A stretch of 64,000 nt of DNA from a virus: positions 32,001 to 96,000 of IMG/VR virus record IMGVR_UViG_3300045988_125846. One strand, written 5' to 3'. A program made the translations under genes and the position numbers. This document shows, piece by piece, positions 8,512 to 40,892 of the stretch (position 1 is the first letter of the stretch; every line of letters starts with the position of its first letter). The notes under the pieces are model-generated. The model did no database searches. It was not told where the DNA came from and saw only the letters and a program-made list of their open reading frames with translations.

Positions 8512-8534
8512 TGTCTCCTCTAATTATTTATTCT

Positions 8535-14177: not shown

Positions 14178-14495
14178 TTAGGACATTTCAGATTGTGTTC
14201 TAAACCGATAACAGAGATTGCTTACAAATCCTTCTATCTCGTTATGAATATTTGCTGTATCATCTTCCATATACTCAACGTACAAATAAGACAATGTATC
14301 TTCTTTATCCAGTAAGAACTCTTCAAAGTCATCTGATATAATATTCTCTGAAAAATAATTAATAATCTCTTCTTTGATACAATACTCATATGAGTATCGT
14401 TTTAATAATTTCTCGCTTGATAAGTCGGAGTTGGTGACTAAATCACCAATCCAACTATTCATCTCTTCATTTAATCTTTGCGTTAGTTTATCCAT
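14178..14495 (-). CDS. hypothetical protein (105 aa)
   Basis: ATG after GGTGAAAG. Confidence 0.5.
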   Translation of the reverse strand: MDKLTQRLNEEMNSWIGDLVTNSDLSSEKLLKRYSYEYCIKEEIINYFSENIISDDFEEFLLDKEDTLSYLYVEYMEDDTANIHNEIEGFVSNLCYRFRTQSEMS

Positions 14496-15103
14496 TTTAA
14501 TTTACTTTCACCTGTATAACCCTTTTCAAACTCGTACCATGCATAAGCGACTGCACTACCACCACCTGCTCTCATCTCATCAAAAAGAGCATTTTTTGCA
14601 CATAAAATACGACTACTTGAAACATAAACACATTTTGGTGGATACTTCTTAAATAATTCTTTACGAGCTTTTCCTTCAAGGAACTGAACTTTAAGAAACA
14701 TAAATACTCTGCAACCATTAGGAATTAATGTCATTGCATGTTCGATAAATTCTTTTGCATATTTGTATGGGGGATTTGTTAAGATATCGCCATTCCAAGG
14801 CTGATTATATGTAAGAAAATCAATTCCACCTTCGCCATAACCTCTATCAATTAGATCGGTGGAACGAACTTCATAGCCGAAGCTCTTTAATCTTTCAGAT
14901 AAATGTCCCTCGCCACAGGAACATTCCCAGATAGGTTTGTCAAATGTAACACCACCATCTTTTAATAAGACATCAATTGCAATAGGATCTGTCGCATAAT
15001 AATCCTCATTCTGTCTCTCCTTGTCAGTGTGATTACTTGCACCTAAAGTCTTAAAAATACTATTTTTATTACCTGTCCAATCTTTTTCTGTATTATTTTT
15101 CAA
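14483..15103 (-). CDS. SAM-dependent DNA N6-adenine methyltransferase (NPPY type)
   Basis: Catalytic motif DILTNPPYKYAKEF. TTG start. The leader shares a GC palindrome with the two other methyltransferase leaders. Confidence 0.65.
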   Translation of the reverse strand: MKNNTEKDWTGNKNSIFKTLGASNHTDKERQNEDYYATDPIAIDVLLKDGGVTFDKPIWECSCGEGHLSERLKSFGYEVRSTDLIDRGYGEGGIDFLTYNQPWNGDILTNPPYKYAKEFIEHAMTLIPNGCRVFMFLKVQFLEGKARKELFKKYPPKCVYVSSSRILCAKNALFDEMRAGGGSAVAYAWYEFEKGYTGESKLKWIN

Positions 15104-18736: not shown

Positions 18737-19474
18737 TTATTCGCCTCCTCTTATCTCAAACAACTTCTCTACAGTTTTCTCACCTGTAACTCTATCTGAC
18801 TTCTGCAATACCTTTCGTTCTTTCTGCCAAATACACTTAAAATCATCAGGCATATTATATTCACTTACTAACACTATATTATTCTCTGAAAGTTTACGAA
18901 GAAAATCGTAGAATTCGTCATAGTCGATTGACTGTTTAGAATACTGTTTTGTATTACGATATGGTGGATCGAAATAAAAGAGACAATTCTTATAATCTGC
19001 AAAGTCCTTATAATCACAACATCTAAATTCAATGTCATTTAAATCAGGAATTTGTGTTCTAAAATTCTTCAATCTTTCATTGTAAATACTTCTACCGCCC
19101 TTAGAATCTCTGCCATATCCACCATCAAAATACCTACCGCCATAAGATGCACAATATCCAATAAGTGCTATATACTCTTTTGAATATTTATGTGTTCCAA
19201 GTTTTCTATCTTCTCTTACATCGGAATAATGTTCAAATGTGCATACATCTGGTGCAATAGATAAATCATTATCAGACTGAGCATATTTCAATAAAGCAAT
19301 TAGTTCTTCATTAATGTCAGCTCCTATCTTCTTATCACATTTAATCTTATCAATTAAATTCGCTCCACCCACCATAGGTTCTATGTAAGTTTTAATATTA
19401 TTGTCATCAATATACTTCTGAATAATTGGCACTAAAAATTTTGCCAATCTATTTTTACTTCCTTGATATACCAT
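18737..19474 (-). CDS. dam: Dam-family (D12 class) DNA N6-adenine methyltransferase
   Basis: N-terminal YQGSKNRL and catalytic FYFDPPYRNT. No SD near the ATG; GAAAGGAG lies about 47 nt upstream. Confidence 0.7.
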   Translation of the reverse strand: MVYQGSKNRLAKFLVPIIQKYIDDNNIKTYIEPMVGGANLIDKIKCDKKIGADINEELIALLKYAQSDNDLSIAPDVCTFEHYSDVREDRKLGTHKYSKEYIALIGYCASYGGRYFDGGYGRDSKGGRSIYNERLKNFRTQIPDLNDIEFRCCDYKDFADYKNCLFYFDPPYRNTKQYSKQSIDYDEFYDFLRKLSENNIVLVSEYNMPDDFKCIWQKERKVLQKSDRVTGEKTVEKLFEIRGGE

Positions 19475-19775: not shown

Positions 19776-20057
19776 TTATGTATTCTTCCAATCTAATGCC
19801 TGACCACATTGATCACAATATTTAATGTCGGTATCTTTATATCCATCATCACACAATAGTTCACCACAAGCAGGACAATACCATTCAAACGGAATTCTCT
19901 CTCCGCTATTTTTCACTTTCTTTGGAATTTGTTTTTCTATTGCTGATATTGCAAATCTAATTGCTTCTAAAACGTTGTAATCAGGGTATGGCTTCCATGA
20001 TTTTTTCAAATATTCAAAATGTATTAAAAGAAACTTTTTAGCTTTATATGATGTCAT
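19776..20057 (-). CDS. zinc-ribbon protein (93 aa)
   Basis: CPACGELLC ... CDQCGQ. Confidence 0.45.
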   Translation of the reverse strand: MTSYKAKKFLLIHFEYLKKSWKPYPDYNVLEAIRFAISAIEKQIPKKVKNSGERIPFEWYCPACGELLCDDGYKDTDIKYCDQCGQALDWKNT

Positions 20058-20914
20058 CCTATTTCTCCTTTATATTCAGCTACTCTCTTACTTCCAACCT
20101 CAAAAATATTCTTATCTTTCTCAAAACATATGTAATTTCTACCTGTATTCAAAGCTGCGGCTGCCGTTGTACAACTTCCTGCACATGAATCAAGAACTAA
20201 ATCTCCTGGGTTGGTGTAGGTCTTAATGAAATACTCACACGCTTCAACAGGCTTTTGACATTGATGTAAGCTACTTTTCTGAGTATCCCACTTAAATTGC
20301 AAAACATCTCTTGGGTATCTTTGTGTGCTACCACCACCTGAAATACCAGTTTTTGTAGCACCATAACAATTACCATCTGTTGTATGTTTCGTATAAGAAT
20401 GTACAGGTGTATGCCCTTCTGTCATTTGGGGATTGTAAGTAGGGAGTTTCTTATAGAAAATCAAGACATTTTCGTGTGCCTTCATCGGCATTTTCTTTGC
20501 GTTTAGATGACCCGTTGCTTTGGTCTTTTCGATAATCCATTCATAGCGATATAGTTTTTCATTACTACAAGCGAGTCTCTTATCAAATGGTGATTGCGCC
20601 CATAATGCTATACAACCATTATCTTTGATAATTCGATTGTAATGAGTCCATAAACCATCTTTTTTGTTCTCATAAAACCAATCTCTTGTATATTCAAGAC
20701 TACTATTTGTTACTTGAGCTAACTTAAATAAATCTGTTTCATAAAAATATTGACCTGATAACTCCACATAATCATTTAACGGCATTTCACATTCCCAAGA
20801 ATTATTAGTCGTATTATAAGGTGGATCTGTGAAGATGAAATCAATTGACTTATCATCAATCTTTTTCATACCTTCAAGGCAATCTTCATTGTATATTTTG
20901 TTAATCTCTAACAT
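20054..20914 (-). CDS. DNA methyltransferase, N4-cytosine/N6-adenine (DPPY) family
   Basis: IDFIFTDPPYN near the N-terminus and a C-terminal SAM-binding DSCAGSCTTAAAA. This motif order is typical of the N6_N4_Mtase family. Confidence 0.7.
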   Translation of the reverse strand: MLEINKIYNEDCLEGMKKIDDKSIDFIFTDPPYNTTNNSWECEMPLNDYVELSGQYFYETDLFKLAQVTNSSLEYTRDWFYENKKDGLWTHYNRIIKDNGCIALWAQSPFDKRLACSNEKLYRYEWIIEKTKATGHLNAKKMPMKAHENVLIFYKKLPTYNPQMTEGHTPVHSYTKHTTDGNCYGATKTGISGGGSTQRYPRDVLQFKWDTQKSSLHQCQKPVEACEYFIKTYTNPGDLVLDSCAGSCTTAAAALNTGRNYICFEKDKNIFEVGSKRVAEYKGEIG

Positions 20915-22745: not shown

Positions 22746-22795
22746 AAAACCCTCCTAAATTCCTCAAGAAATCTATGTTTCTTGGTAAAAATATT

Positions 22796-22838
22796 ACTAT
22801 ATATAGTGTCTATATTTTCTATAAACACTATATATAGT
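22796..22838. promoter_or_regulatory. pair of ACTATATATAGT palindromic boxes, 31 bp centre to centre
   Basis: Exact boxes at 22796-22807 and 22827-22838. With flanks they form a perfect 15-bp inverted repeat, TACTATATATAGTGT / ACACTATATATAGTA. Confidence 0.5.
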
Positions 22839-22845
22839 ATTTCAT

Positions 22846-23586
22846 TTACGCCTGATACATAAAACTTGGCATTGGCTGTAATTTAAACAGATTTTTCTCA
22901 TGCATTGAATCAATCTTAGCTTTTACTTCCTCACTTGGCTCAATTCCATCTCTGATGTATGCATCTAATTCAGCATAAGTAAATCCAAGGTTATCTTCAT
23001 CTGTCTTTCCACAAAGACCGTCAGTAGGTGTCTTATCAACTAATTCTGATGGAAGTCCTAACTCACGACCAATAGCCTTAACCTCTGTTACTGTAAGCTG
23101 AGATAACGGTGCAAACGAACCAAATCCGTCACCTCCGAAGGTCGCATAACCAACCCAATCCTCGGAAAGATTACAATTACAACTTGGTATACCGTTATTA
23201 CACTGAGCATAGAAATACAATTCTGTCATTCTAACTCTTGCAGGAACATTTACTTTAGCCTGTTCTGTAACAACTACTCCATTTGATTCCATTTCAGAAA
23301 TAATAGAATCAACGGTTGAACCGATATTAATAATTTTGTATTCAATCCCAAGATGATTTGCACATAAAATACTACAGTCAATATCTGACTGTTCATACTG
23401 TGGTAGCATAATACCTTTCACTCTATCAGCTCCTAGAGCAGAGACACATAAGGCTGCGACAACAGACGAGTCTTTACCGCCAGATAAAGCAACACAACAG
23501 TTCTTATCTGGGAATTTTTCTTCAAACAAATTTTTAATCCATTCGATACAATCATTTGTTACTTTCTTAACATCAAAATTATACAT
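22846..23586 (-). CDS. nadE: NH3-dependent NAD+ synthetase
   Basis: PP-loop CVALSGGKDSSVVAAL and C-terminal TDEDNLGFTYAELDAYI; about 246 aa. Confidence 0.8.
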   Translation of the reverse strand: MYNFDVKKVTNDCIEWIKNLFEEKFPDKNCCVALSGGKDSSVVAALCVSALGADRVKGIMLPQYEQSDIDCSILCANHLGIEYKIINIGSTVDSIISEMESNGVVVTEQAKVNVPARVRMTELYFYAQCNNGIPSCNCNLSEDWVGYATFGGDGFGSFAPLSQLTVTEVKAIGRELGLPSELVDKTPTDGLCGKTDEDNLGFTYAELDAYIRDGIEPSEEVKAKIDSMHEKNLFKLQPMPSFMYQA

Positions 23587-23608
23587 AGGTTCTCCTTCAT
23601 TTATAGGT

Positions 23609-24412
23609 TTAATCAGTTATTTCCACTTTATAGTTATACAATGCCCTATATACAACTATAGGAAAATTATCATATTTGTTTTTATAATAGTCTGCAATTT
23701 CTTTTATATAGTTTTCTTTCTCTTTTTTATATGCACAAAATGCTTCTTCTGGTGTGTTAAATACACCGATATGTACTTGTTGTTTTGTATTTTTCGTATT
23801 ATTATTTAATTTTGAAACTTGTGCAATAAATTTTCCAAGTCTTTTATTAAAAGATACTCCTATTGGGTATTCCCCTCTTTTTGCGTCAGTTTTCGTGAAA
23901 AGAATATTAATACGTTCAGGAACGAAGATACATGTATCTTTTGAATATACTGTATTATTTTTATATAATATGTCTTTATCCAAACACATTTTCTCTTCTC
24001 CACATTCGTAAAAATTATCATTAAACCACTTTGAAAAGTTCGACAAATAAAACCACTCATCATCTACTTCGCATTTTTTGTAAGTCGGATATCGTGATAA
24101 ATCTATTTTATTATAACAACGCTTTAACATACCAACCCAGTATAAATATTCTTTTGTAAATGAATCATCTTGTTTTATTATTTCATTTCCTACTATACCG
24201 TGATTAAATACAGTAGGTAAAAATGTATCAAATGTAGTACCTTTAATAAAATTGCTATATGCCTGATGATATACAATGTTGTTCGTATCTAAGAATTGAA
24301 TATCAATATCTGTAGCATTTTTATATTTAATTATTTTCATTCTTTCGCCCTGTTTATTAACTACTATTTCCCAAAGTCTTTCCTTTGCTTGTGATTCAGA
24401 TATTTTAAACAT
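23609..24412 (-). CDS. AP2-domain protein, homing-endonuclease-like
   Basis: GVSFNKRLGKFIAQV ... HIGVFNTPEEAFCAYKK (AP2/ERF-like DNA-binding domain) and LDKD...YSKDTCIFVPERIN (degenerate HNH-like). No SD at the ATG. In-frame ATA codons at 24443-24448 sit 5-8 nt after GGAG. Confidence 0.55.
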   Translation of the reverse strand: MFKISESQAKERLWEIVVNKQGERMKIIKYKNATDIDIQFLDTNNIVYHQAYSNFIKGTTFDTFLPTVFNHGIVGNEIIKQDDSFTKEYLYWVGMLKRCYNKIDLSRYPTYKKCEVDDEWFYLSNFSKWFNDNFYECGEEKMCLDKDILYKNNTVYSKDTCIFVPERINILFTKTDAKRGEYPIGVSFNKRLGKFIAQVSKLNNNTKNTKQQVHIGVFNTPEEAFCAYKKEKENYIKEIADYYKNKYDNFPIVVYRALYNYKVEITD

Positions 24413-24460
24413 AGGGTTATCTGTTTTTAAATGTGTTTCTTTTATTATATATTCTCCTTC

Positions 24461-25087
24461 CTACATTCGATTCATCACATCATAAAACCGAATTAAATAC
24501 TCATATACATTTCTAGGAACTAACTCTTTTACTTTTTCAAATTCACCTTTCTCACATAAATCTCTAACCAAACTTGAAGAAGTATGATTTTCTGGTATCT
24601 GAATTTCTGTGAAATGTTCTTTGTATTCCATAAGATTTGCTTCTCTCAAAGCATTCTCAAGGTTCTGACCTTCTCTCACACATGCTACAAAATTATATTC
24701 CTCAACAAACGGTTTCCAATTATACCAAGTTGTAAGTGTTTCAATATTATCCATTCCTAAACAAATATAGTATTCGTTGAAGATATAATCTTTTTCATTC
24801 ATATCTCTTATCTGAGTAATAGTATTGTATGTCCTCTGTGGAAAGAAGCTGGTTGTTTCAACTTCGGATGCCCACATATTATTTTCATCACAATTTGGCA
24901 TTGAATTAATCAGCGATACTCGACAATATCCAGGTATTAAAGTCTTTTTCTTCGCAACATATGTATCATGTGCAGGAATAAACAATATAGCATCGGCATT
25001 AACCGCTTTTTTAGCAGTCAATGCCATATCAACATGAGCGTTTGTAATCGGATTAAAACTTCCTGGTATAAGTAAAATTTTATTCAT
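24461..25087 (-). CDS. nadD: nicotinate/nicotinamide mononucleotide adenylyltransferase
   Basis: IPGSFNPITNAH (GxFxPxHxGH-type motif) and C-terminal TSSSLVRD (ISSTxIR-type). Overlaps the pncB stop by 8 nt. Confidence 0.7.
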   Translation of the reverse strand: MNKILLIPGSFNPITNAHVDMALTAKKAVNADAILFIPAHDTYVAKKKTLIPGYCRVSLINSMPNCDENNMWASEVETTSFFPQRTYNTITQIRDMNEKDYIFNEYYICLGMDNIETLTTWYNWKPFVEEYNFVACVREGQNLENALREANLMEYKEHFTEIQIPENHTSSSLVRDLCEKGEFEKVKELVPRNVYEYLIRFYDVMNRM

Positions 25088-26288
25088 GATCCATTCTCCA
25101 ATTAATACATCTCTTTAGATAATCAACATAATCAGGGTTTTTACACATGCCTTTTCCTTCTACGTCAGAAACTTTTGCAACATCCATACCGTTACATTTA
25201 GTAGTTTTCATTACAATATTTAAAGCAGGAACATCTGTATCATTACTCAAATAAGTACCAATTCCAAATGCAACATTTACTCTATCATGGAAGTGTCTGA
25301 ATAACTTATCAGCTCTTTCAAAATCAAGACTGTCACTAAACAGAAGTGTCTTTGTCTTAGGATTTATACCAAGTGACTCATAATGATTAATCATCTTTTC
25401 ACCCCATTCAATCGGATCGCCACTATCATGTCTTACACCACTGAATAATGTTGCATATGTCAACTGAAAATCTTTCAAGAAACAATCAGTTGTAATTGTA
25501 TCTGTGAGCGCAATACCATTTAACACACCATACTCTCTAACCCATGCGTCTAGGGCATACCAGTTTGAATATGCTGGATTGTGCTTGTGATTGCCCTGAC
25601 CAGAACACATAATCCATTCATGAGCCATAGTTCCAACAGGCGTGAGATTATATTTCTTTGCGAGATATACATTAGATGTACCAACAAATTTAGATGGACT
25701 GTGTAATGTATCATTCAAATGTGAAAACTTCTTAACAGCTAACTCCTGTGCTTCAGCAGAAAGTCTTCTTCTAAGACCAAATTCAGAAAATGTACCAGCA
25801 TACCAATGACCGCTTCTGAGATTTTCATACTTTTCATCTAATCTCTTTTTGAAACTATTAAGCAATTCTTCATAGTTATATGCCATTCTGAAATATACTT
25901 CGTTTACAATCGCAAGTGTAGGAATCTCATACATAGATGTATTAAGCCATGTACCAAATGTTTCGATAGAAAGACCGCAATCTGAATCTGTTGTAATCTC
26001 AAAATCCTCATATCTTGGCTGCCACAATCTCAGAAAATCAACATACGAACCCTTCATCCATTTGATATTATCAATATAAGTAAGTTCATCTTCTGTGAAT
26101 CTCAAACCACAATATAATTTAATCTGTCTGCGAATCTCTTCTACCATTTCTGGTGTAAAATGAACATCCTTATTACGACACTTAAAACTCCAAGTGGTTT
26201 TATAATCACTAAACTGATGATAAATAGCCTGTCCCATTGACAATTTGTAGGCATCTGTCTCAAATAAACTTGTAATAATCTGCTCCAT
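25080..26288 (-). CDS. pncB: nicotinate phosphoribosyltransferase
   Basis: Collinear with E. coli PncB: TDAYKLSMGQA, GTSNVYLAKKYNLTPVGTMAHEW, GIALTDTITTD, GVRHDSGDPIEWGEK, FGIGT and LNIVMKTTKCNG. Start trimmed to Met32 of the track ORF. Confidence 0.85.
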   Translation of the reverse strand: MEQIITSLFETDAYKLSMGQAIYHQFSDYKTTWSFKCRNKDVHFTPEMVEEIRRQIKLYCGLRFTEDELTYIDNIKWMKGSYVDFLRLWQPRYEDFEITTDSDCGLSIETFGTWLNTSMYEIPTLAIVNEVYFRMAYNYEELLNSFKKRLDEKYENLRSGHWYAGTFSEFGLRRRLSAEAQELAVKKFSHLNDTLHSPSKFVGTSNVYLAKKYNLTPVGTMAHEWIMCSGQGNHKHNPAYSNWYALDAWVREYGVLNGIALTDTITTDCFLKDFQLTYATLFSGVRHDSGDPIEWGEKMINHYESLGINPKTKTLLFSDSLDFERADKLFRHFHDRVNVAFGIGTYLSNDTDVPALNIVMKTTKCNGMDVAKVSDVEGKGMCKNPDYVDYLKRCINWRMDHE

Positions 26289-26289
26289 A

Positions 26290-26844
26290 TTATTTACCTT
26301 CTTTCTTGATTTGATTAAATATTGTTCTAATATCATATTCTCTGTTTTCGTACTCATAAAACAGATTAATATACTTATCAATAAAAGCTATATCATTTGG
26401 ATGCATTGCAATTGGTTTACTTTTCTTAGATTTCCACCATTTTAATTCCTTCTCAAAATTAAATGATTTACCATGATATGCTCTACCTGCTCCAAGATAA
26501 TCACAAAGCATTTCTTTTTTATACTTCATTGGCATTTCAATAGGATTTCCACCATTATCAAAATTGTCTTCCCAATACTCGTAGTGGTGCTTGTTTCTTC
26601 CTTTATGGTGCATCCAAGCAGCCGACCAACCATTCTCTTTCTTACAAGCGTCTATTGGACTTGAAGTACCTTGATAATACTTAACACTCTCCCAAAATTC
26701 CGTTGGAGAAAATTTAGATAAATCATGTACTAACCCTTGAAATGGAATTCCCACTTTACAGCAATAGTAGAACACCCAACGTTTATGAGTACAGACTTTC
26801 TTAAAATGTCTAAAAGTATTAATGATATAATTCTTATACTTCAT
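26290..26844 (-). CDS. hypothetical His-rich protein embedded in the NAD operon (possible HD-type phosphohydrolase, DUF5662-like)
   Basis: LVHDLSKF and WMHHKGRNKHHYEYW. Overlaps the pncA 3' end by 11 nt and ends 1 nt before the pncB start. The family call is tentative. Confidence 0.35.
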   Translation of the reverse strand: MKYKNYIINTFRHFKKVCTHKRWVFYYCCKVGIPFQGLVHDLSKFSPTEFWESVKYYQGTSSPIDACKKENGWSAAWMHHKGRNKHHYEYWEDNFDNGGNPIEMPMKYKKEMLCDYLGAGRAYHGKSFNFEKELKWWKSKKSKPIAMHPNDIAFIDKYINLFYEYENREYDIRTIFNQIKKEGK

Positions 26845-27358
26845 TATTTTCTCCAATCACTTCAATCTGACAACTTTTCATAACTTCCATAGCAGCTTTA
26901 TGTTTATCAGGTGTGACACCTGCACAGCAACTAGCATCTACTGTAATATCAATCTCAGGATAATTTGCTCTAATAATAAGTGCATTTGAAATTACGCAGA
27001 TACTTGTGCATAATCCGCAGATTTCAACACTTTTAAATTTAAAATCATCCCAATGTGCCCATCCAAAAGTAATTTTGTCAATCAGAATGTCATTATCAAT
27101 ATCAAGATCTAACTTATCTGAAATCTGCCAACCAACAGTATTCTTTACACAGTGAGTAACAGGAAGATGTACACCTTCATATGTCTCTAAATAATTCTCA
27201 GAGTGTGTGTCTCTTGTAAAGATTACCTGTTTACCAGCATCCTTGTACTCCTTAATTTTCTTTGCTACATTTGATACAATCGCCTGTGCTTCCTTTGTAC
27301 CAAGCGTTCCATCAATAAAATCATTCTGCATATCTACAACAATTAATGTTTCTCTCAT
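26834..27358 (-). CDS. pncA: nicotinamidase (isochorismatase family)
   Basis: LIVVDMQNDFIDG, FTRDTH, and the catalytic Cys context ICGLCTSICV. Confidence 0.75.
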   Translation of the reverse strand: MRETLIVVDMQNDFIDGTLGTKEAQAIVSNVAKKIKEYKDAGKQVIFTRDTHSENYLETYEGVHLPVTHCVKNTVGWQISDKLDLDIDNDILIDKITFGWAHWDDFKFKSVEICGLCTSICVISNALIIRANYPEIDITVDASCCAGVTPDKHKAAMEVMKSCQIEVIGENNEV

Positions 27359-27450
27359 TTTGTTACCTCTTTTCTTTGTTCTTATATGTATTTATTCTCT
27401 GAAAACTCAGAAGAAAAAAAAATATTTCTTGTTACTTTTATTTGGAAAAT

Positions 27451-27466
27451 TTGGCTGAATCGCCAA
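27451..27466 (-). promoter_or_regulatory. GATTCA-loop hairpin (TTGGC/GCCAA stem) upstream of the NAD operon
   Basis: Seen in sequence. Related copies at 27808-27819 and 36437-36452 share the flanking AATTTGG. Confidence 0.4.
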
Positions 27467-27487
27467 GATAGAAATTTCTATATATGA

Positions 27488-28365: not shown

Positions 28366-29757
28366 TTAATATTTAATCCAACCATCTGTAATACCAGTCA
28401 TCCAATAAATAAGATCTTCTCTATCATTTTTTAATCTTCCATCTATTACACGAGTTAAGATTTCATTGAGCCAGTAGCCAACTTCTTTTCCACTTTTAAT
28501 GAGCATTGTATCCATTACATCCTTACCATTAACTGCTAAATCCTTTAGAGAAAAACATTCATCATCCTGTAAGACTTCTTCTAAAATATATCCAATGTTA
28601 TCAATCTTCTGTAATCTTGTTTCCTGATTAATGTCTGCTTGTGCTTTAATATCAGCTCTACGAACATTTAATAACCTTCTGAACTGTTCTTCTCCAATTT
28701 TATTAAGCCATCTCTTGACATATTTCTTTCCAACCTCAAAAGTAGCATCATGATAATAAACAAGCTGTACAACCTTTTCTCTTGTATCATTATCAAAACG
28801 AAGTCTTTTCATAATTGTATCAGTCATATCAGCACTGACTTTTCCATGTCCTTTGAAATGTCTGATACCATCTTCTCCATCCTGATAACAATGTGGTTTT
28901 CCTATGTCATGAAAGAATACCGCTAATGATGTAATTAAATCTATTGGATTTAAGTCTTCTTCACAATCACAAGAATATGCTTCTACAGCATGAATTGTAT
29001 GTTCCCATACATCATAGATGTGATATGGATTATTCTGTGGAAAATCAAACATATCTTTTATTTCAGGAATAAACAATGATAATACATCGCTATATAAAAC
29101 CATCTGTACACAGAAATCACTTGATGCAGCGATTTTACAGAACTCACTATTTATCCTTTCAACTGATATATTCTTCAAATTCTGATACACCTTATGTAAA
29201 ACATAATCTGTATTTGGTTCAAGAACAAAATCCAACTGAGAAGCAAATCTGATAGCTCGTAAAATTCTCAAAGCATCTTCATCGAATCTATCTTCTGGTT
29301 TACCAACACACTGAATTTTGTGATACTTTATATCTTCCATGCCATTAAACGGATCTACAAGACCAACTTCATCATTGTATGCCATCGCATTGATTGTAAA
29401 ATCTCTACGCTTTAAATCTTCTTCAAGACTTTTTGTAAAAGTTACTTTATCTGGTCTACGGCTATCAGAATAATTACCATCAATTCTGTATGTTGTTACT
29501 TCATATGGTTCTCCATCAATGACAATCGTTATTGTTCCATGCTGTAAGCCAGTTTCAATAATTCTTTTATCCTTGAATACTTCCATCATCTCATCAGGTG
29601 TAGCAGATGTTGTAATGTCATAATCGTGAATTGGTCTTTCCAGAATGCTATCACGAACACAGCCACCAACTAAATATGCTTCGTATCCTTTATCTTGGAG
29701 TATATGAATAATCTCATTTGCACCAGATGGGATTTTAATTTTTAATTTAGATTTCAC
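28366..29757 (-). CDS. cca: CCA-adding enzyme (tRNA nucleotidyltransferase) with HD domain
   Basis: GGCVRDSILERPIHDYDITT, RRDFTINAMA, and HD motif FFHDIGKP. Confidence 0.8.
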   Translation of the reverse strand: MKSKLKIKIPSGANEIIHILQDKGYEAYLVGGCVRDSILERPIHDYDITTSATPDEMMEVFKDKRIIETGLQHGTITIVIDGEPYEVTTYRIDGNYSDSRRPDKVTFTKSLEEDLKRRDFTINAMAYNDEVGLVDPFNGMEDIKYHKIQCVGKPEDRFDEDALRILRAIRFASQLDFVLEPNTDYVLHKVYQNLKNISVERINSEFCKIAASSDFCVQMVLYSDVLSLFIPEIKDMFDFPQNNPYHIYDVWEHTIHAVEAYSCDCEEDLNPIDLITSLAVFFHDIGKPHCYQDGEDGIRHFKGHGKVSADMTDTIMKRLRFDNDTREKVVQLVYYHDATFEVGKKYVKRWLNKIGEEQFRRLLNVRRADIKAQADINQETRLQKIDNIGYILEEVLQDDECFSLKDLAVNGKDVMDTMLIKSGKEVGYWLNEILTRVIDGRLKNDREDLIYWMTGITDGWIKY

Positions 29758-30775
29758 CCTTAACCACCCTTTCGTTTACACTTGCAACAAACTCATTGAT
29801 TTTCTTGTAGTCTGGATTTTCAGGAAGATTAGTATTTTTCTTTGCATAATCCAATCTCTTCTCATAGTCATTTACCATTTCAAAGAACTCAGGAATTGGC
29901 TGATCGTTGCTGTCGAGATATTTACCATTACGAATATCCATAAGCAAATCATGTTCATCTTCTCTATATGTGATTATTCTCTCTTTCTCAAGAATATCTA
30001 AACACATCATATAAAGTCGAATAAGATGCATTGAATGTTTTGCAATTTTACCATGCTCAATAGCTTTCTCATTTCTTTTACCAATCTTTCCATACTGACG
30101 AACTGTGTTCTGAAGTTCATTCCACATAGAGCAATAATCTCTTAATGGATAATGAGTAAGGTTTACATCCATAAAAATCTCTGTGTCATATCCTTCCTGC
30201 ACAGCCTTATCAATATATAACTTCATTGAATCATCTGAATATGGTGTGTATTTCTTTGTAAAATCTGTCTGCATAAATTCAAGCGTCTTTAAAATGTGTT
30301 TCTCCAATTCTGACTGAGACATCTGATGTGCTGCTTTCTGGTTCAATCTATAGAGCTGCTGATTCGCATATCCTCCAAACGAATGACAAGCTCTCTTTGA
30401 TAAAAATAAATGTGCATTATCAATTAGTTCCTGACCAATAGATGATACATAAAAGTAATGTTCAGGTTTATTTCCAAGCATTTCTATTGTATTAGGATTC
30501 GTATTACTTAACAATGCTACTAACTTATTAAAGGCATAAATAGTTGTGTCTGTCTCATTGTTTACAAACTGCTCAAAATTCTCATTTGTGAGGATCTGCA
30601 TCTTGCTATTCAAAGCACAACCACGAATATCTAAATCACTGCCTTCATTGTTTGTTCCATATGCATGACTTCCACCAAGAGTTAAGATAATGATATTGTT
30701 ACCTAAATTCTTATCTGTTCTCAGGAAGTCATACTCTTTTGATTTTAATTTGTCCTTAATCTGTTCAATTGTCAT
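29747..30775 (-). CDS. Pol-beta-fold nucleotidyltransferase, RlaP-like (RNA-repair-associated)
   Basis: LGGSHAYGTNNEGSDLDIRG nucleotidyltransferase motif; about 340 aa. The 3' end overlaps the cca start by 11 nt. Start trimmed to the ATG after TTGGAGG. Confidence 0.55.
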   Translation of the reverse strand: MTIEQIKDKLKSKEYDFLRTDKNLGNNIIILTLGGSHAYGTNNEGSDLDIRGCALNSKMQILTNENFEQFVNNETDTTIYAFNKLVALLSNTNPNTIEMLGNKPEHYFYVSSIGQELIDNAHLFLSKRACHSFGGYANQQLYRLNQKAAHQMSQSELEKHILKTLEFMQTDFTKKYTPYSDDSMKLYIDKAVQEGYDTEIFMDVNLTHYPLRDYCSMWNELQNTVRQYGKIGKRNEKAIEHGKIAKHSMHLIRLYMMCLDILEKERIITYREDEHDLLMDIRNGKYLDSNDQPIPEFFEMVNDYEKRLDYAKKNTNLPENPDYKKINEFVASVNERVVKGEI

Positions 30776-30833
30776 TGTCTTAACCTCCAAAATTTCGCAA
30801 GAAATGTGCGTTTCTTTCTAATGTAAAATATAT

Positions 30834-30921: not shown

Positions 30922-31014
30922 TTATTTATTCTTCTTACGTTTTCCTACAATAAAACCTGCTCCAAAGCATACACCGAGACAGATTACGAAAACTCCAATG
31001 TTTAATACAATCAT
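30922..31014 (-). CDS. small hydrophobic peptide (30 aa)
   Basis: Own translation MIVLNIGVFVICLGVCFGAGFIVGKRKKNK. The ATG shares one nucleotide with the upstream stop (TAATG). Confidence 0.35.
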   Translation of the reverse strand: MIVLNIGVFVICLGVCFGAGFIVGKRKKNK

Positions 31015-31763
31015 TACTTATTACCTCTCTGTCTCTTCATATCATCAAGGATCTGGCGAGCATTGCGCTCTCTTTCAGAATTAGCAAGTCTTCTCTCATT
31101 AGCCTGTGCGCTAGAATCATATGCAATTCTACTTCCTTCTGCACGTTCTCTTGTCTTTCTTGCTCCTTCACGAACTCTTTCAAGCATTCTATCACTCTCA
31201 TTATTTGTATTAAGATTATCCATACTCTGATGAAGTTCGATAATCTGACTATCGGCTTCCATCTGAAAAAGAACCTGTTCCTTTTCCTCTTTAAGTTTCT
31301 GCAATTCTTCGGCTGCCTGATCACGAATGTCTTTTTGGTGAGCCTGTGCTTCTCTCATCTCTTCAATTGTATCTTTTAGTACATTAATCTTATTCTCCAA
31401 AGTAGACTTCTTCATTGCATACTGCATTGCTTCATTTTCTTTGTTTTCATCAAGACAAGCGTTAATCTGCTGTGTAACACGCATAATATCTTTATTTGCC
31501 TGATATAAGTCTTTTTCTGCTGTATCACGCTTTCCTGAAATTTCAGCATATGTAGCAGATGCCTTGTTATAAAAATCTTCCTTTTCTCTAATGGCTGCGT
31601 TATAATAATCTCTAGCACCTTCTGGTGTCTGTGCATCCTGACGCATTACTTCATCTGTTCTTCCTTTAAACTTTACTCGAAGCTGTTTACCAAAAGGAGT
31701 AAAGAAAAGAATCAGTGCAATTAATACAATCGCCACAATTATAATAAACATAAAATTTGTCAT
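31014..31763 (-). CDS. membrane-anchored coiled-coil protein, PspA/IM30- or TelA-like
   Basis: N-terminal TM helix FMFIIIVAIVLIALILFF, then about 220 aa of heptad-like Glu/Lys/Arg/Gln-rich sequence. The family call is tentative. Confidence 0.4.
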   Translation of the reverse strand: MTNFMFIIIVAIVLIALILFFTPFGKQLRVKFKGRTDEVMRQDAQTPEGARDYYNAAIREKEDFYNKASATYAEISGKRDTAEKDLYQANKDIMRVTQQINACLDENKENEAMQYAMKKSTLENKINVLKDTIEEMREAQAHQKDIRDQAAEELQKLKEEKEQVLFQMEADSQIIELHQSMDNLNTNNESDRMLERVREGARKTRERAEGSRIAYDSSAQANERRLANSERERNARQILDDMKRQRGNK

Positions 31764-31772
31764 ACAATCCTC

Positions 31773-32354
31773 CTACTCTGCATCAATTCCATACTGATTA
31801 CATAATGCCTTTAATCCACCATTATAGCCACTTCCTACAGCCTTAAACTTCCATTCGCCATTATGTTTATATATTTCAGATACGACTAACGCAGTCTCGG
31901 TAGAGAAGTCTTCACTTAAATCAAAACGAATAAGCTCCTCGCCTGTCTCTTCGTCTACTACACGCACATATGCATTTCCAACCATACCGAAGTTCTGAAG
32001 TCTACTCTCAGCATCATAAATTGTGACCGTCACAGCAAGAGTCTCATAGTCTGATGGGATTTTATCAAGTTTAATCTTAATAACCTCATCATCTCCATCT
32101 CCCTCACCTGTACGGTTATCTCCCATATGCTTTACACTTTTTGAACTATGTTCAAGATTACCATAGAAAATAAAATCCTCATCCTTGCCAACCTTGCCAT
32201 TCTCTTTTGTCATAAACACAGAGGCATCGAGATCAAAATCTGCTTCTCCGTCATAATGATTAATATCCCATCCAAGTCCAACAAGAATGTTTTTTAATGA
32301 CGGTCTACCCTTTGTTAAATCTACTCTCTGTCCTTTACTTAACGAAACTGACAT
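31773..32354 (-). CDS. terD: TerD-domain protein
   Basis: LSKGQRVDL, GLGWD, DFDLDASVF, GDNRTGEGDGDDE, FGMVGNAYVRV and GEWKFKAVGSGY. Confidence 0.85.
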   Translation of the reverse strand: MSVSLSKGQRVDLTKGRPSLKNILVGLGWDINHYDGEADFDLDASVFMTKENGKVGKDEDFIFYGNLEHSSKSVKHMGDNRTGEGDGDDEVIKIKLDKIPSDYETLAVTVTIYDAESRLQNFGMVGNAYVRVVDEETGEELIRFDLSEDFSTETALVVSEIYKHNGEWKFKAVGSGYNGGLKALCNQYGIDAE

Positions 32355-32366
32355 AATTAAATCCTC

Positions 32367-32942
32367 CTACTTGTATCTTCTTGTTAATTCGCTAACACTT
32401 GAATCATTTGTTCCCTGACCGATAGCGTTAAATTTCCACTCTCCGTCTTTCTTATAAACTTCTGCAAATACCATTGCTGTCTTGCCAGCATAATCATCTG
32501 AAAGATTGTATTTACAAATTTCCTTACCAGTTGACTCATCAACAAGTCTAATGTACGCATTCTTGATAAGTCCAAAATCCTGCTTTCTTGAAATACAATC
32601 ATAGATATTTACTACAAATACAATCTTCTCAACCTTATTTGTAATATTCGCAAGATCAACGGTAATCTGCTCATCATCACCGTCTCCATCTCCTGTGAGG
32701 TTGTCACCATGATGATACACACATCTGTCTTCCGCTGATCTGTCACCATAATAAACACATGTACGATACTTATCATCTTTTCCTAAAATAATTGCTGAAG
32801 CATCGCAATCAATGTTTGGCTTAGAACCAAATAATCCTTTCTTAGCAGCATCCCATCCAAGTCCTACCATAATCTTTGTAAGACCACCTGCTACTTCCTT
32901 AGATAAATTAATTTTCTGTCCTTTTACTAAATTTACTGACAT
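32367..32942 (-). CDS. terD: TerD-domain protein
   Basis: LVKGQKINL, GLGWD, DCDASA, GDNLTGDGDGDDE and GEWKFNAIGQG. Confidence 0.85.
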   Translation of the reverse strand: MSVNLVKGQKINLSKEVAGGLTKIMVGLGWDAAKKGLFGSKPNIDCDASAIILGKDDKYRTCVYYGDRSAEDRCVYHHGDNLTGDGDGDDEQITVDLANITNKVEKIVFVVNIYDCISRKQDFGLIKNAYIRLVDESTGKEICKYNLSDDYAGKTAMVFAEVYKKDGEWKFNAIGQGTNDSSVSELTRRYK

Positions 32943-32960
32943 ATATATTCTCCTTCCATT

Positions 32961-33539
32961 TTATAAATCAAGACCAAAATTTCTACCAATAGCAGCTAAA
33001 CCACCATTGTAACCTGAACCAACTGCATTAAACTTCCATTCACCGTTCTTACGATACAACTCACCTGCAATAACACCTGTCTCTAATGAGAAATCCTCAT
33101 TAAGTTCATATTTGAAAAGTTCCTCATTTGTATCAGCGTTGTATGCTCTAATGTACGAATTATCAACCATTCCGAAATTCTGTAAACGATTTTCTGCATC
33201 ATAAATTGTCGCTGAGAAGCTAATCTTTGTAATATTAGATGGAATCTTATTTAACTCAACAATCATTGTCTCGTCATCGCCATCACCTACACCTGTTCTA
33301 TTATCACCAGAATAAATCAATGCTCCGCTTGGATGCTGTGGCTGACCATAAAATACAAAATCCTGTTCGCCTGTTACCTTTCCTGAATCATCAGTAAAAA
33401 ATGCTGATACATCCAAATCGAAATCTGCATTACCATCGTATCTATTTGTATCCCATCCAAGACCAAATACGACTTTGTTTAAACCTGCATTGCCTTTTGT
33501 AAGGTCAATCTTCTGACCTTTAACTAAACTAATTGACAT
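32961..33539 (-). CDS. terD: TerD-domain protein
   Basis: Start trimmed to MSISLVKGQKIDL (SD AAGGAGG). GLGWD, DFDLDVSAF, GDNRTGVGDGDDE and GEWKFNAVGSGY. Confidence 0.85.
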   Translation of the reverse strand: MSISLVKGQKIDLTKGNAGLNKVVFGLGWDTNRYDGNADFDLDVSAFFTDDSGKVTGEQDFVFYGQPQHPSGALIYSGDNRTGVGDGDDETMIVELNKIPSNITKISFSATIYDAENRLQNFGMVDNSYIRAYNADTNEELFKYELNEDFSLETGVIAGELYRKNGEWKFNAVGSGYNGGLAAIGRNFGLDL

Positions 33540-33732
33540 ATTGTTTGTCCTCCTTATTCTTGGGAAGGCTGTCAACCTTCCCTTTTAATAATTTAAAAGA
33601 AATTGGGAATGTGAGTAACGTCAGAAAAATAAATGGAATAAAGCGTGTAATACATGCTACAACAACACTAATTGAAAAACATATAAGAGTAATAATCTCT
33701 ACTTTTTTATAACTTTTATCTCTCCTTATCAT
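33529..33732 (-). CDS. small membrane protein (67 aa, two predicted TM helices)
   Basis: Hydrophobic stretches IITLICFSISVVVACI and IPFIFLTLLTF. Lies between the ATPase and the terD genes. Confidence 0.45.
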   Translation of the reverse strand: MIRRDKSYKKVEIITLICFSISVVVACITRFIPFIFLTLLTFPISFKLLKGKVDSLPKNKEDKQYVN

Positions 33733-33748
33733 GTTCTCATCTCCTCAA

Positions 33749-36478: not shown

Positions 36479-36979
36479 TTACTTTGATTTTTTATTTAAA
36501 ATTTTTATAGCTAACTCTTTTAATTCTTCTGTCAACCCATGCTTATATGTTGTTTTAATAAAGTGGTCAGTATTTAAAAACTCACACATATCTGAATCAT
36601 CATCTAATATAATAAAATTATCAACTGGATTCTTTGACAACCATTCTCTAATTTCATCCCCACGTTGAGTATCGCCACTCAAAGATGGAGTAATATCATA
36701 CACCTCTATATCATAATCAGATAATCTACTAATTAGTTTTGTGTACAATTTATTTCCAAAAATACTTTCTTTACCACTTCTATCACAACCAATTCGCCAA
36801 GAGGATGACACAACAATTTTTGCGTTTGTTTTGTCAATTATTTCTTTTAATAATTTTAGAGGTCTATCCTCCACTTCCGCATATAATATACATCCCGTAA
36901 TATTATTCTTTGCTCTATAAATCAGCAAGTCATCCTCAGAATTGAGTACACCATCTACATCTAAAAATATAACCTTCAT
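36479..36979 (-). CDS. HAD-superfamily phosphatase (the type found in RNA-repair 'Swiss army knife' proteins)
   Basis: VIFLDVDGVLN (DxDG motif I), VVSSSWR, and IILDDDSD. Confidence 0.55.
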   Translation of the reverse strand: MKVIFLDVDGVLNSEDDLLIYRAKNNITGCILYAEVEDRPLKLLKEIIDKTNAKIVVSSSWRIGCDRSGKESIFGNKLYTKLISRLSDYDIEVYDITPSLSGDTQRGDEIREWLSKNPVDNFIILDDDSDMCEFLNTDHFIKTTYKHGLTEELKELAIKILNKKSK

Positions 36980-40629: not shown

Positions 40630-40654
40630 CTCCTCTCTTTGTTTGATTTAGCAA

Positions 40655-40728
40655 TGGATCATCAGAGACTTGAACTCTGAGCCTTTCGGTTATGAGCCGA
40701 ATGCACTAACCAATTGTGCTAATGATCC
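40655..40728 (-). tRNA. tRNA-Met: tRNA-Met (anticodon CAT; elongator type, or Ile2 if lysidinylated), no encoded CCA
   Basis: Hand-folded cloverleaf: acceptor GGATCAT/ATGATCC, D stem GCAC/GTGC, anticodon stem TTCGG/CCGAA with loop CTCATAA, T arm CAGAG-TTCAAGT-CTCTG, discriminator A. Confidence 0.85.
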
Positions 40729-40760
40729 AAGTCGCTGACACTATCGCAAGTTTATCAGGA

Positions 40761-40813
40761 AGTTCTATAGTATCAGCTTGTAATCCGTTAGTGGATCAGG
40801 CTATGGTAGAACT
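40761..40813 (-). other. 53-nt structured spacer between the two tRNAs (7-bp terminal stem, 6-bp inner stem with loop ACTAAC)
   Basis: AGTTCTA...TAGAACT terminal pairing. The inner stem TGATCC/GGATTA contains a G-U pair only in the minus-strand sense. There are no D or T arms, so this is not a canonical tRNA. Confidence 0.3.
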
Positions 40814-40892
40814 ATAGCAACTACACATTTTGCTCTTACAATGATTAATTCTTGCGTTCTGCGATAGAACCCGGTCTGGAAGTATCGCATAG

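Follow-up and report, generated by a model that had tools for sequence, protein, structure and literature searches.

Background

NADase-type bacterial defences (SIR2, TIR, DSR and similar) cleave NAD+ into nicotinamide and ADP-ribose. Phage operons that rebuild NAD+ from these products include NARP1 (Adps and Namat), which re-joins ADP-ribose to nicotinamide, and NARP1-AP, which additionally carries the Macro-domain phosphatase Adpp and shows that accessory hydrolases can join such operons (10.64898/2026.01.28.702374). NARP2 (Nampt and Nmnat) starts from nicotinamide and PRPP, is independent of ADP-ribose, proceeds in two amidated steps via NMN, makes NAD+ whether this is depleted or not, and has been proven experimentally (Osterman et al. 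2024, 10.1101/2024.02.11.579819). NARP3 combines a PnuC-like transporter with a NadR-like enzyme, imports nicotinamide riboside, uses amidated intermediates, and restored the NAD+ depleted by Sir2-HerA (Sci Adv 2026, PMC13464706). According to published reports, NAD+-depleting defences are overcome or restricted by phage-encoded NARP2 and NARP3 (10.64898/2026.01.28.702374; PMC13464706). An earlier note on the DNA analyzed here gave NARP1 and NARP2 as the published countermeasures; the list now also includes NARP3 (PMC13464706) and NARP1-AP (10.64898/2026.01.28.702374).

Genes for the deamidating (Preiss-Handler) route are also known from phages. In jumbo phages such as Kuafu_71, Li et al. (Microbiome 2024, PMC11662467) found pncB-nadD-nadE clusters that are predicted to make NAD+ and, in the authors' proposal, act against NAD+ depletion; they also mentioned phage pncA. 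Given that work and the annotated cultured jumbo phages, the suggestion that this route had gone unrecognized in phages was overstated: the cluster type and its possible role against NAD+ depletion were already described from sequence data. Our literature search returned no experiment linking the deamidating route to defence evasion. Among cultured phages, Sinorhizobium phage Phosso has a stretch of ~6 kb that holds nadE, pncB and genes for an NMN adenylyltransferase and a PncA-like hydrolase, and Agrobacterium phage Atu_ph07 combines pncB with a PncA-like gene and a gene for an ADP-ribose pyrophosphatase. In bacteria, salvage operons of the pyridine nucleotide cycle, such as pncA-pncB1-nadE of P. 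aeruginosa (PMC7318152), contain these enzymes in a similar gene order.

Here we describe a pncA-DUF5662-pncB-nadD-nadE cluster in a 64,000-nucleotide stretch of viral DNA, referred to as the window. As for the NAD-jumbo phages, the counter-defence idea comes from bioinformatics only; the present cluster differs in having an extra pncA, so that it would start from nicotinamide, and an extra conserved gene, DUF5662. Its lineage lies mostly on contigs below 200 kb, not strictly "jumbo", and gives weak hints of a Bacillota host, whereas the predicted hosts of the Kuafu clade are Bacteroidota. Like NARP2 it would use nicotinamide and PRPP without ADP-ribose and form NAD+ in depleted and undepleted cells, but in four predicted steps via nicotinate, NaMN and NaAD, with an equivalog-level PncB in place of Nampt. 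With NARP3 it shares the character of a phage-borne canonical bacterial salvage module, although its route is deamidating; neither the cluster nor the scanned ORFs of the window include a transporter, NadR or PnuC gene. In contrast to NARP1 it makes no use of ADP-ribose, and DUF5662 is not a relative of Adpp, the Macro-domain phosphatase of NARP1-AP. Unlike the bacterial pncA-pncB-nadE operons, its genes are phage-borne, include nadD and DUF5662, and are split by a homing-endonuclease-like insertion; its PncB is 40% identical to the proteobacterial-type PncB. The genes of Phosso and Atu_ph07 are interspersed with others, whereas here they form a tight operon; the PncB proteins of those phages are only 30-32% identical to the present one, and the stretches examined in them showed no DUF5662.

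Gene arrangement and boundaries of the cluster

The cluster comprises six ORFs on the minus strand between 22846 and 27358, with coordinates matching those of the earlier note (Table 1). The co-directional arrangement with overlapping or 1-nt junctions was seen again when all three junctions were re-read from the sequence: the pncA stop (26834) and the DUF5662 ATG (26844) overlap by 11 nt, 1 nt lies between the DUF5662 stop (26290) and the pncB ATG (26288), and 8 nt are shared by the end of pncB (stop 25080) and the start of nadD (ATG 25087). The ATG starts adopted for DUF5662 and pncB are those where the family matches begin, the mechanical ORFs being longer. The genes are presumably co-transcribed, in a unit that is probably bounded by the leader on its 5' side and ends at the inverted repeat on its 3' side. 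The leader hairpin failed the terminator scan, and within the leader no promoter exceeded the shuffled background and an Rfam search detected no riboswitch.

Table 1. Features of the NAD+ salvage cluster (window coordinates)
Feature	Coordinates	Strand	Description
pncA	26834..27358	-	nicotinamidase-like isochorismatase-family hydrolase, 174 aa; predicted step 1
DUF5662 protein	26290..26844	-	184 aa from ATG; ORF reaches TTG at 26856; HD-like motif; putative accessory
pncB	25080..26288	-	nicotinate phosphoribosyltransferase, 402 aa from ATG; ORF reaches TTG at 26381; predicted step 2
nadD-like	24461..25087	-	nicotinate(/nicotinamide) mononucleotide adenylyltransferase, 208 aa; predicted step 3
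mobile insertion in nadD/nadE gap	23578..24444	-	carries AP2-domain, homing-endonuclease-like CDS 23609-24412, 267 aa
nadE	22846..23586	-	NH3-dependent NAD+ synthetase, 246 aa, without glutaminase domain; predicted step 4
terminator-like 20-bp perfect inverted repeat with T-rich tail	22795..22839	-	from terminator scan; directly 3' of nadE
129-nt intergenic leader 5' of pncA	27359..27487	-	short hairpin 27451-27466 and AGAGG ribosome-binding site

Family and motif evidence for the four enzymes

The strong motif support previously claimed for the four enzymes was borne out by HMM searches, in which all four expected Pfam families were matched, and by intact catalytic motifs. PncB (NAPRTase, 3.6e-67) scores well above the cut-offs of NCBIfam PRK05321 (480.8 bits, cut-off 379) and TIGR01514 (400.8 bits, cut-off 269.55), aligns end to end with the P. 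aeruginosa NAPRTase 1YIR (E 1.7e-95), and keeps GTMAH223EW, presumably the motif with the autophosphorylated histidine. NadE (NAD_synthase, 8.4e-44; TIGR00552, 145.4 bits, cut-off 63.65) matches the P. horikoshii NH3-dependent NAD synthetase 2E18 (6.9e-34) and has the S35-GGKDS P-loop. NadD (CTP_transf_like, 3.8e-15) has as its closest solved relatives the S. aureus and B. anthracis NadD (5e-10), and carries GSFNPITNAH, a T-x-x-H variant of HxGH, and SSSLVR; its TIGR00482 score (102.7 bits) is slightly under the cut-off of 112.45. PncA (Isochorismatase, 6.5e-28) aligns over its full length with the Pyrococcus horikoshii nicotinamidase 1ILW (E 1.5e-16), and its motifs VVD9, RD50-T-H52, T-H69-CV, D-K95 and IC121V all match that protein; we take them to be the catalytic D/K/C triad and the Zn ligands (1ILW D10/D52/H54/H71/K94/C133). 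An identical PncA sequence is labelled "nicotinamidase-related amidase" in a public source. Since the score of PncA against the NCBIfam nicotinamidase equivalog (31.8 bits) is far under the 174-bit cut-off, we infer its substrate from motifs and context. The sub-threshold equivalog scores of PncA and NadD are a point against the reading that we favour below.

Viral location and conservation among relatives

A PncB search of IMG/VR viral contigs yielded 164 relatives, mostly on contigs of 90-215 kb, of which 80 loci were kept for a survey of gene order. The order pncA-DUF5662-pncB-nadD-nadE is held in ~65 of the 80, so the pncA-pncB-nadD-nadE synteny sought among phages is indeed widespread in related viral contigs, and it recurs in the diverged lineage L083-L086, far beyond what chance would give. 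Preiss-Handler-type sets occur in independent phage lineages (L083, MT835470, LR756501, Phosso and Atu_ph07), and L083 has a NadR and PnuC pair ~4 kb upstream of its cluster. The sister clade L075-L081 retains only pncB and nadE; the full four-gene set is thus not essential. Although nadE and pncA have been swapped among many alleles (16 and 12 classes, respectively), all five genes retain their catalytic motifs in nearly all copies, which points to selection for function.

The concern that the cluster might be flanking host DNA is answered by its place deep in the interior of 90-215 kb contigs, dozens of them in IMG/VR, and by its phage-type flanks. These extend 22 kb and 36 kb, are co-directional with the cluster and of the same composition, and contain genes with matches in PHROGs and in large Bacillus and Clostridioides phages. 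GC content is uniform across the window (0.30-0.36), GC skew is negative throughout, and nearly all ORFs of at least 120 aa lie on one strand. The window holds phage-typical genes, along with two tRNAs and homing-endonuclease insertions of the sort usual in large virulent phages; next to the cluster are orphan DNA methyltransferases, a CCA-adding enzyme, RlaP and HAD_SAK_2, which are genes of anti-defence or repair type. That host or other non-phage mobile DNA (a prophage flank, plasmid or ICE) was mis-binned as viral is very improbable, even though the 64-kb window contains no structural phage gene, integrase-like and ParB-like genes are present, and metagenomic contigs of 240-551 kb encode an identical PncA as well; no plasmid match was found for the window. 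A further point for mis-binning is a GenBank "phage" pncB, that of Mcat17, which lies outside the annotated attR, probably in flanking host DNA. We assign the present cluster to an uncultured gut phage with a large genome of about 130-200 kb.

The DUF5662 protein

The gene described in the earlier note as a His-rich unknown can now be given a family, Pfam DUF5662 (1.5e-32). Across 32 homologs the residues H13, H20, H40-D41, H79-H80, H86-H87, E89, D93 and D115 are invariant. The AlphaFold2 model is all-helical (pLDDT 93.8), and its top structural matches are HD-GYP domains, at a non-significant E of 0.29. The gene is found at 66 of the 80 related loci in only three allele classes, and what is new here, as far as these comparisons indicate, is a near-invariant DUF5662-pncB-nadD core around which pncA and nadE are exchanged. 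We regard DUF5662 as a conserved fifth gene of the cluster with a putative accessory role.

This uncharacterized, His/Asp-rich protein, locked in a core with pncB and nadD, leaves some room for a different chemistry, in which PncA would act on another amide and the NadD-like enzyme on NMN or another nucleotide, and the cluster, together with an HD-like DUF5662, would make or destroy an NAD-related nucleotide (a signal or an NAD analogue) and not bulk NAD+. The low equivalog scores of PncA and NadD fit such a chemistry, as does another phage-like contig, where genes for a 2-hydroxyacid dehydrogenase and a cytidylyltransferase-like protein are close to DUF5662 and the 12.5-kb stretch examined yielded no pncB. 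We consider it improbable, given that the equivalog-level matches of PncB and NadE are unambiguous, that PncA has the full nicotinamidase motif set, and that pncA and nadE alongside pncB are the signature of the deamidating route. Moreover, one clade (L061, L064-L066 and L073) can dispense with DUF5662, and in bacteria it was linked to NAD genes at only 1 of 80 loci.

Predicted pathway and its possible role

The route from nicotinamide through nicotinate, NaMN and NaAD to NAD+, as proposed in the earlier note, is the coherent reading of a complete predicted enzyme set with intact catalytic residues. PncA would convert nicotinamide to nicotinate and NH3; PncB would use nicotinate and PRPP (plus ATP) to form NaMN; the NadD-like enzyme would convert NaMN and ATP to NaAD; and the ammonia-dependent NadE would produce NAD+ from NaAD, ATP and NH3. 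As a single tightly coupled unit, the operon would give the infected cell a high salvage capacity free of host regulation. On balance, the operon probably encodes this full deamidating route, and its most likely benefit would be that the replicating phage does not run short of NAD+, including, as the most conjectural part, in cells with NADase-type defences, because the nicotinamide released there is the exact entry substrate. The analogy with NARP2 and NARP3, canonical salvage routes reported to act against NAD+-depleting defences, is consistent with a counter-defence role. The four-step route is costly in ATP and PRPP, a point against that role. NadD and NadE are already generally present in bacteria, so the benefit may be one of general flux and not of counter-defence.

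A plain metabolic supply, in which NAD+ would serve the phage's own NAD+-using enzymes (NAD-dependent DNA ligase, Tpt1/KptA-family RNA 2'-phosphotransferase, dehydrogenases) and the replication of a large genome, with recycling of nicotinamide, is a serious though less probable alternative, and it fits the gene neighbourhoods of some relatives. The Tpt1/KptA family consumes NAD+ and liberates nicotinamide, and a gene of this type (PF01885) lies 4-9 kb upstream of pncB at 10 of 91 loci; the NAD-dependent DNA ligase LigA (phrog_3869, 3.9e-173) is encoded 2-4 kb downstream of nadE in L061, L064, L065 and L066. However, neither gene is within the 64-kb window, nor within 10 kb in most relatives, and by our reasoning their NAD+ use is probably small relative to the cell pool. 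A passage in Li et al. also speaks for metabolic supply, as does the upregulation of the host pncA-pncB1-nadE operon by jumbo phage PA5oct in ordinary infection (PMC7318152). Supply and counter-defence are compatible and not mutually exclusive.

The AP2-type insertion

The AP2-type gene noticed earlier between nadD and nadE proved to lie in an 867-bp insertion that is absent from L013 and L060. Alignment with these two loci showed that the inserted segment takes the place of the nadE ATG and brings a new ribosome-binding site and start codon, so that nadE begins MYNFDV and not MFDV. The gene matches Pfam AP2 weakly (1.8e-6, under the Pfam cut-off) and PHROG 953, "HNH endonuclease", strongly (5.4e-64); the HNH domain itself was not detected in its product. 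The insertion is present at only ~13 of the 80 loci, and the AP2 gene is a selfish mobile insertion outside the NAD+ pathway.

Organization of the NAD+ cluster

The six genes that the earlier note had placed co-directionally between positions 22846 and 27358 were all found on the minus strand with those coordinates, in the order pncA, DUF5662 gene, pncB, nadD, AP2 gene and nadE (see the table). The junctions that it quoted were also read in the sequence, provided that ATG starts are used: the overlap is 11 nt between pncA and the DUF5662 gene and 8 nt between pncB and nadD, and a gap of 1 nt separates the DUF5662 gene from pncB. These junctions suggest that the cluster is a single, translationally coupled transcription unit. 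Ahead of pncA lies a 129-nt leader, which contains an AGAGG ribosome-binding site. Around the cluster, the promoter scan gave nothing better than the shuffled background, and no NAD+ riboswitch or other RNA element was found.

Features of the NAD+ cluster and of its neighbourhood in the window
Feature	Position	Strand	Evidence or remark
Adenylosuccinate-synthetase-family protein, short, 363 aa	4050-5141		PHROG 1211 (PurZ-type, linked to 2-aminoadenine genomes)
Protein	2342-3535		45-49% identity with proteins from Bacillus and Clostridioides phages of 130-165 kb
PAPS-reductase-domain protein, 336 aa	8535-9545		in phages, this kind is often tied to the modification of DNA or nucleotides
Orphan DNA methyltransferases, three separate	14483-15103, 18737-19474, 20054-20914		downstream of the NAD+ genes, within 7 kb
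Inverted repeat	22795-22839		perfect, 20 bp, T-rich tail; directly after nadE (terminator scan)
nadE	22846-23586	-	NAD_synthase 8.4e-44; TIGR00552 145.4 bits, above cut-off (63.65)
AP2 gene	23609-24412	-	AP2 1.8e-6 (below cut-off); PHROG 953 'HNH endonuclease' 5.4e-64
nadD	24461-25087	-	CTP_transf_like 3.8e-15; TIGR00482 102.7 bits (cut-off 112.45)
pncB	25080-26288	-	NAPRTase 3.6e-67 and N-terminal domain 9.7e-26; TIGR01514 400.8 bits (cut-off 269.55) and PRK05321 480.8 bits (cut-off 379), both above cut-off
DUF5662 gene	26290-26844	-	Pfam DUF5662 1.5e-32
pncA	26834-27358	-	Pfam Isochorismatase 6.5e-28
CCA-adding enzyme with HD domain	28366-29757		RNA-repair type; just upstream of cluster
RlaP nucleotidyltransferase	29747-30790		RNA-repair type; upstream of cluster
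PspA/IM30-like gene	31014-31763		stress-response-like module
TerD paralogs, three in tandem	31773-33575		E 4e-83 to 6e-68
P-type cation-transporting ATPase, 866 aa	33749-36349
HAD_SAK_2 'Swiss Army Knife' RNA-repair phosphatase domain	36479-36979		upstream of cluster
735-aa protein	37598-39805		sigma-70 region 2 match; weak match to GmrSD restriction endonuclease N-terminal domain
tRNA-Met and tRNA-Gln (two tRNAs in the window)	40654-40964
MazF-like toxin gene	41547-41927
Tyrosine-integrase-like gene	42481-43470
ParB-like gene	58691-59629		weak match

The four enzymes and the predicted pathway

The reading of the cluster as a four-step pathway is sound: the four families match, and the catalytic motifs, whose loss would have refuted the idea, are present in PncA, PncB, NadD and NadE. 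PncA aligns over its whole length with the Pyrococcus horikoshii nicotinamidase 1ILW (E 1.5e-16), and two sets of residues sit in motifs matched to it, D9, K95 and C121, which we take from that structure to be the Asp-Lys-Cys triad, and D50, H52 and H69, presumably the zinc ligands. Against the NCBIfam nicotinamidase equivalog PncA reaches 31.8 bits, far below the 174-bit cut-off, therefore nicotinamide is its putative substrate. PncB aligns end to end with the NAPRTase of P. aeruginosa, 1YIR (E 1.7e-95), and retains H223 within GTMAHEW, a motif of the GTxAHE type with its conserved histidine. NadD carries the motifs GSFNPITNAH and SSSLVR, of the (H/T)xxH and ISSTxxR types, and its closest solved structures are NadD enzymes of Gram-positive bacteria; it scores under the TIGR00482 cut-off, and its preferred substrate may be NaMN or NMN. 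In NadE, residues 35-40 form the SGGKDS loop (SGGxDS ATP-pyrophosphatase type); the protein has 246 aa and no glutaminase domain, and is therefore of the NH3-dependent type.

Nicotinamide is the product of the NADase defence effectors. The predicted PncA would convert it to nicotinate with release of NH3, the predicted PncB would use PRPP and ATP to turn nicotinate into NaMN, the NadD-like enzyme would produce NaAD from NaMN, and the predicted NadE would convert NaAD to NAD+ at the expense of NH3 and ATP. The NH3 released in the first step would balance that consumed in the last one.

The cluster is carried by phage DNA

The proposal that the cluster is phage-borne and not a host flank was sustained by the distribution of its relatives. 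A search of IMG/VR viral contigs gave 164 relatives of PncB, and the 80 loci that were kept come mostly from contigs of 90-215 kb, in whose interior the cluster lies. No structural phage gene was found in the 64-kb window, therefore the term phage rests on the classification of the collection and on gene content. This absence could also be accounted for if the cluster were flanking DNA of the host; nonetheless, the interior positions, the phage-typical flanks, the many window ORFs that match PHROG families and the lack of a match to plasmids make this very improbable. The GC content of the window is uniform (0.30-0.36), the GC skew is negative throughout, and nearly all ORFs of at least 120 aa lie on the minus strand.

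The window corresponds to no known plasmid or cultured phage: the cluster had no megablast match to GenBank phages, its flanks had none to plasmids, and for other segments of the window the matches to phage records were all short. Of the 80 contigs, which may be incomplete genomes, a single one exceeds 200 kb, the criterion for NAD-jumbo phages (L066, 215,886 bp), and most measure 90-196 kb. The exact cluster proteins are also present in NCBI, JGI, ENA and Logan assemblies, and at 90% identity the PncB cluster has 1,658 members. The exact PncA, together with the rest of the cluster, recurs on two ENA metagenomic contigs of 551 kb (L169) and 240 kb (L170), and one of 749 kb is indexed; L169 and L170 may be integrated copies, larger genomes or assembly artefacts.

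Two other records were considered and set aside. The 176-kb gut phage record MT835469 was uninformative as a full-genome relative in which to look for structural genes, given that it shares 9 of 134 ORFs with the window. The pncB of Moraxella phage Mcat17 (L178, KR093641.1 57499-58701) was rejected as a phage-borne copy; it lies beyond the annotated attR and is probably bacterial flanking DNA.

Conservation, allele replacement and homing insertions

When the synteny of the pathway genes was surveyed, the order pncA-DUF5662-pncB-nadD-nadE was held in about 65 of the 80 viral loci. It also holds in the diverged lineage L083-L086, whose PncB is 76% identical. There, on the 225-kb contig L083, a pair of NadR-like and PnuC-like genes (77-1898), the combination published as NARP3, lies about 4 kb upstream of the cluster (5424-9049), and two NAD+ routes appear to be placed side by side. 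Reduced versions were also found: of the cluster, a sister clade (L075-L081) keeps pncB and nadE alone, nadD is missing in L070 and L072, and the DUF5662 gene in L061, L064-L066 and L073.

Among the homologs from L002 to L081, 3-4 allele classes were distinguished for the DUF5662 gene, pncB and nadD, at a median pairwise identity of 96-98%; for pncA there are 12 classes (median identity 77%) and for nadE 16 (66%). From this pattern, the end genes pncA and nadE seem to be replaced like cassettes around a fixed DUF5662-pncB-nadD core. The catalytic motifs are kept in nearly all copies across the allele classes, which suggests selection for function in every part of the cluster.

The AP2 endonuclease-like gene, described before as inserted ahead of nadE, is present in only about 13 of the 80 loci. 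Alignment with L013, a locus with the same nadE allele and no AP2 gene, delimited an insertion of 867 bp (23578-24444). It directly follows the stop codon of nadD and the GAAGGAGAATATATAA sequence that both loci share, and it provides nadE with a new start codon and carries a ribosome-binding site of its own. A different, HNH-type endonuclease is fused in frame to nadE at the same junction in another locus (L064:12000-13577); homing genes have therefore entered the nadD|nadE junction repeatedly, and the AP2 gene is to be seen as a selfish passenger. Other relatives carry different inserts, between pncA and the DUF5662 gene or ahead of nadE.

The DUF5662 protein

The DUF5662 family is very large, with more than 8,000 homologs scored and at least 7,996 proteins at E <= 0.001, and well conserved; its invariant residues are H13, H20, H40-D41, H79-H80, H86-H87, E89, D93 and D115. 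The predicted structure is all-helical and confident (pLDDT 93.8). Together with the residue pattern H...HD...H...H...D, this model resembles the HD superfamily of metal-dependent phosphohydrolases, every statistical test of the likeness being non-significant. Foldseek gave nothing significant against PDB and BFVD (best match HD-GYP, E 0.29), sequence and profile searches of the PDB returned chance matches only, and a lenient Pfam scan gave DUF5662 alone, with no Pfam HD match; hhalign with the HD domain of the CCA-adding enzyme of the window aligned the HDxxK motif at a probability of 0.2%. An assignment as HD phosphohydrolase was consequently rejected. No paper naming DUF5662 was found in the literature, and public sources give no informative name.

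In 80 bacterial DUF5662 loci, mostly from MAGs of gut Clostridia, nadE was found within 5 kb only once, and in three isolate or MAG genomes the neighbours of the gene were heterogeneous. A general role of DUF5662 in NAD pathways was therefore rejected, and its link to the NAD cluster is specific to these phages. DUF5662 was likewise rejected as a counterpart of the Macro-domain phosphatase of NARP1-AP, to which it is unrelated.

Counter-defence and NAD+ supply

NAD+ depletion is among the commonest ways by which bacteria abort phage infection. By analogy with NARP2 (Nampt and Nmnat) and NARP3 (PnuC and NadR), a phage-encoded salvage route of this kind should buffer the depletion, and a counter-defence role of the cluster is plausible. 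The phage routes proven by experiment are those two, NARP1 (Adps and Namat) and NARP1-AP, which adds the phosphatase; none of them is deamidating (PMC13464706; 10.64898/2026.01.28.702374). Three NAD+-rebuilding phage routes have been demonstrated so far, all using amidated chemistry. As had been proposed, the route differs from NARP1 and NARP2: the phosphoribosyltransferase is PncB at equivalog level, its PHROG match to Nampt is weak (7.4e-19), and the cluster includes no gene for Adps. Genes for PnuC or NadR are also absent from it, so its gene content matches none of NARP1, 2 and 3; the cluster would work like a NARP without belonging to any of these three.

In gut jumbo phages, 174 of 668 genomes are reported to encode complete NAD+ synthesis through salvage or Preiss-Handler pathways; the pncB-nadD-nadE cluster of Kuafu_71 has been described, phage pncA mentioned, and counter-defence against NAD+ depletion explicitly suggested, with experiments pending (Li et al. 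2024, PMC11662467). As in that NAD-jumbo cluster, pncB, nadD and nadE are clustered here on a phage genome. The earlier statement that the deamidating route is uncharacterised as a phage countermeasure holds for experiments, as our literature search found none, nor a 'NARP4' of this kind; it does not hold for the hypothesis, which Li et al. 2024 (PMC11662467) already put forward. As clusters of this type have been published too, the advance is incremental. Similar gene sets are found in cultured jumbo phages: in Phosso, a stretch of 6 kb encodes NadE, PncB, a Nudix protein, an NMN adenylyltransferase and a PncA-like hydrolase, and in Atu_ph07 pncB is accompanied by genes for a PncA-like protein and an ADP-ribose pyrophosphatase. 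Of two uncultured lineages, MT835470 has a contiguous pncA-pncB-nadE and LR756501 has pncB and nadE. The cluster studied here is a well-conserved, abundant and apparently sub-jumbo example of the phage Preiss-Handler cluster. What appears new is the inclusion of pncA, which gives a tight five-gene operon, DUF5662 as a member of the conserved core, and the swapping of end-gene cassettes together with the homing hotspot at nadD|nadE.

A more ambitious reading takes the five genes as a fourth, mechanistically distinct NARP ('NARP4') that defeats NADase abortive infection in gut bacteria through deamidation, with DUF5662 as a genuine fifth component; as a whole we regard it as unlikely. Under it, DUF5662 would be an HD-like metallo-hydrolase recruited by the phage, which might make usable a product of the NADases or a nucleotide derived from NAD (ADP-ribose, ADPR-1''-phosphate, cyclic ADPR signals, NADP or NaADP), or alternatively might pull the PPi-releasing steps forward, and the rapid swapping of pncA and nadE alleles around the invariant core would reflect an arms race or modular optimisation.

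The operon could instead, or in addition, provide NAD+ for the phage's own NAD+-using enzymes. In four loci (L061, L064-L066) a NAD-dependent DNA ligase is encoded 2-4 kb downstream of nadE, and in ten (L170:5925-6467, L013, L017, L018, L022, L027, L030, L039, L044 and L045) a gene for a Tpt1/KptA-like RNA 2'-phosphotransferase lies upstream; neither gene is present in the 64-kb window. Phage PA5oct, moreover, is reported to upregulate the pncA-pncB1-nadE operon of its host in normal infection (PMC7318152).

If the deamidating route does work as a countermeasure, phages would have recruited every NAD+ salvage route, and nicotinamide, the universal NADase product, would be recyclable in hosts without Nampt. 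For experiments on a fourth reconstitution route the cluster is a good candidate; its lineage is abundant in human-gut metagenomes (the 1,658-member PncB cluster), which makes it a convenient and well-sampled test case, and through the conserved DUF5662 gene a very large protein family that is still uncharacterised becomes concretely approachable.

Genomic neighbourhood

The genes for RNA repair, stress response and DNA methylation that surround the cluster (see the table) look like a stress, repair and anti-defence region, which fits counter-defence and NAD+ supply alike. The block from the PspA-like gene to the ATPase (31014-36349) is swapped for other genes in some relatives, and further, different methyltransferases are found in relatives. 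An RNA ligase (phrog_968) lies near the cluster in 10 loci, and none was found in the 64-kb window. The tRNA, MazF-like, integrase-like and ParB-like genes may be signs of dimer resolution, or of a lifestyle that is temperate or resembles that of a plasmid. For the adenylosuccinate-synthetase-family protein, which is 83% identical to a gene product of MT835469, solved structures point to PurA only and PHROG 1211 is PurZ-type; it may be either a PurZ or a PurA. The 735-aa protein combines its sigma-70 region 2 match with the weak GmrSD match, an unusual pairing.
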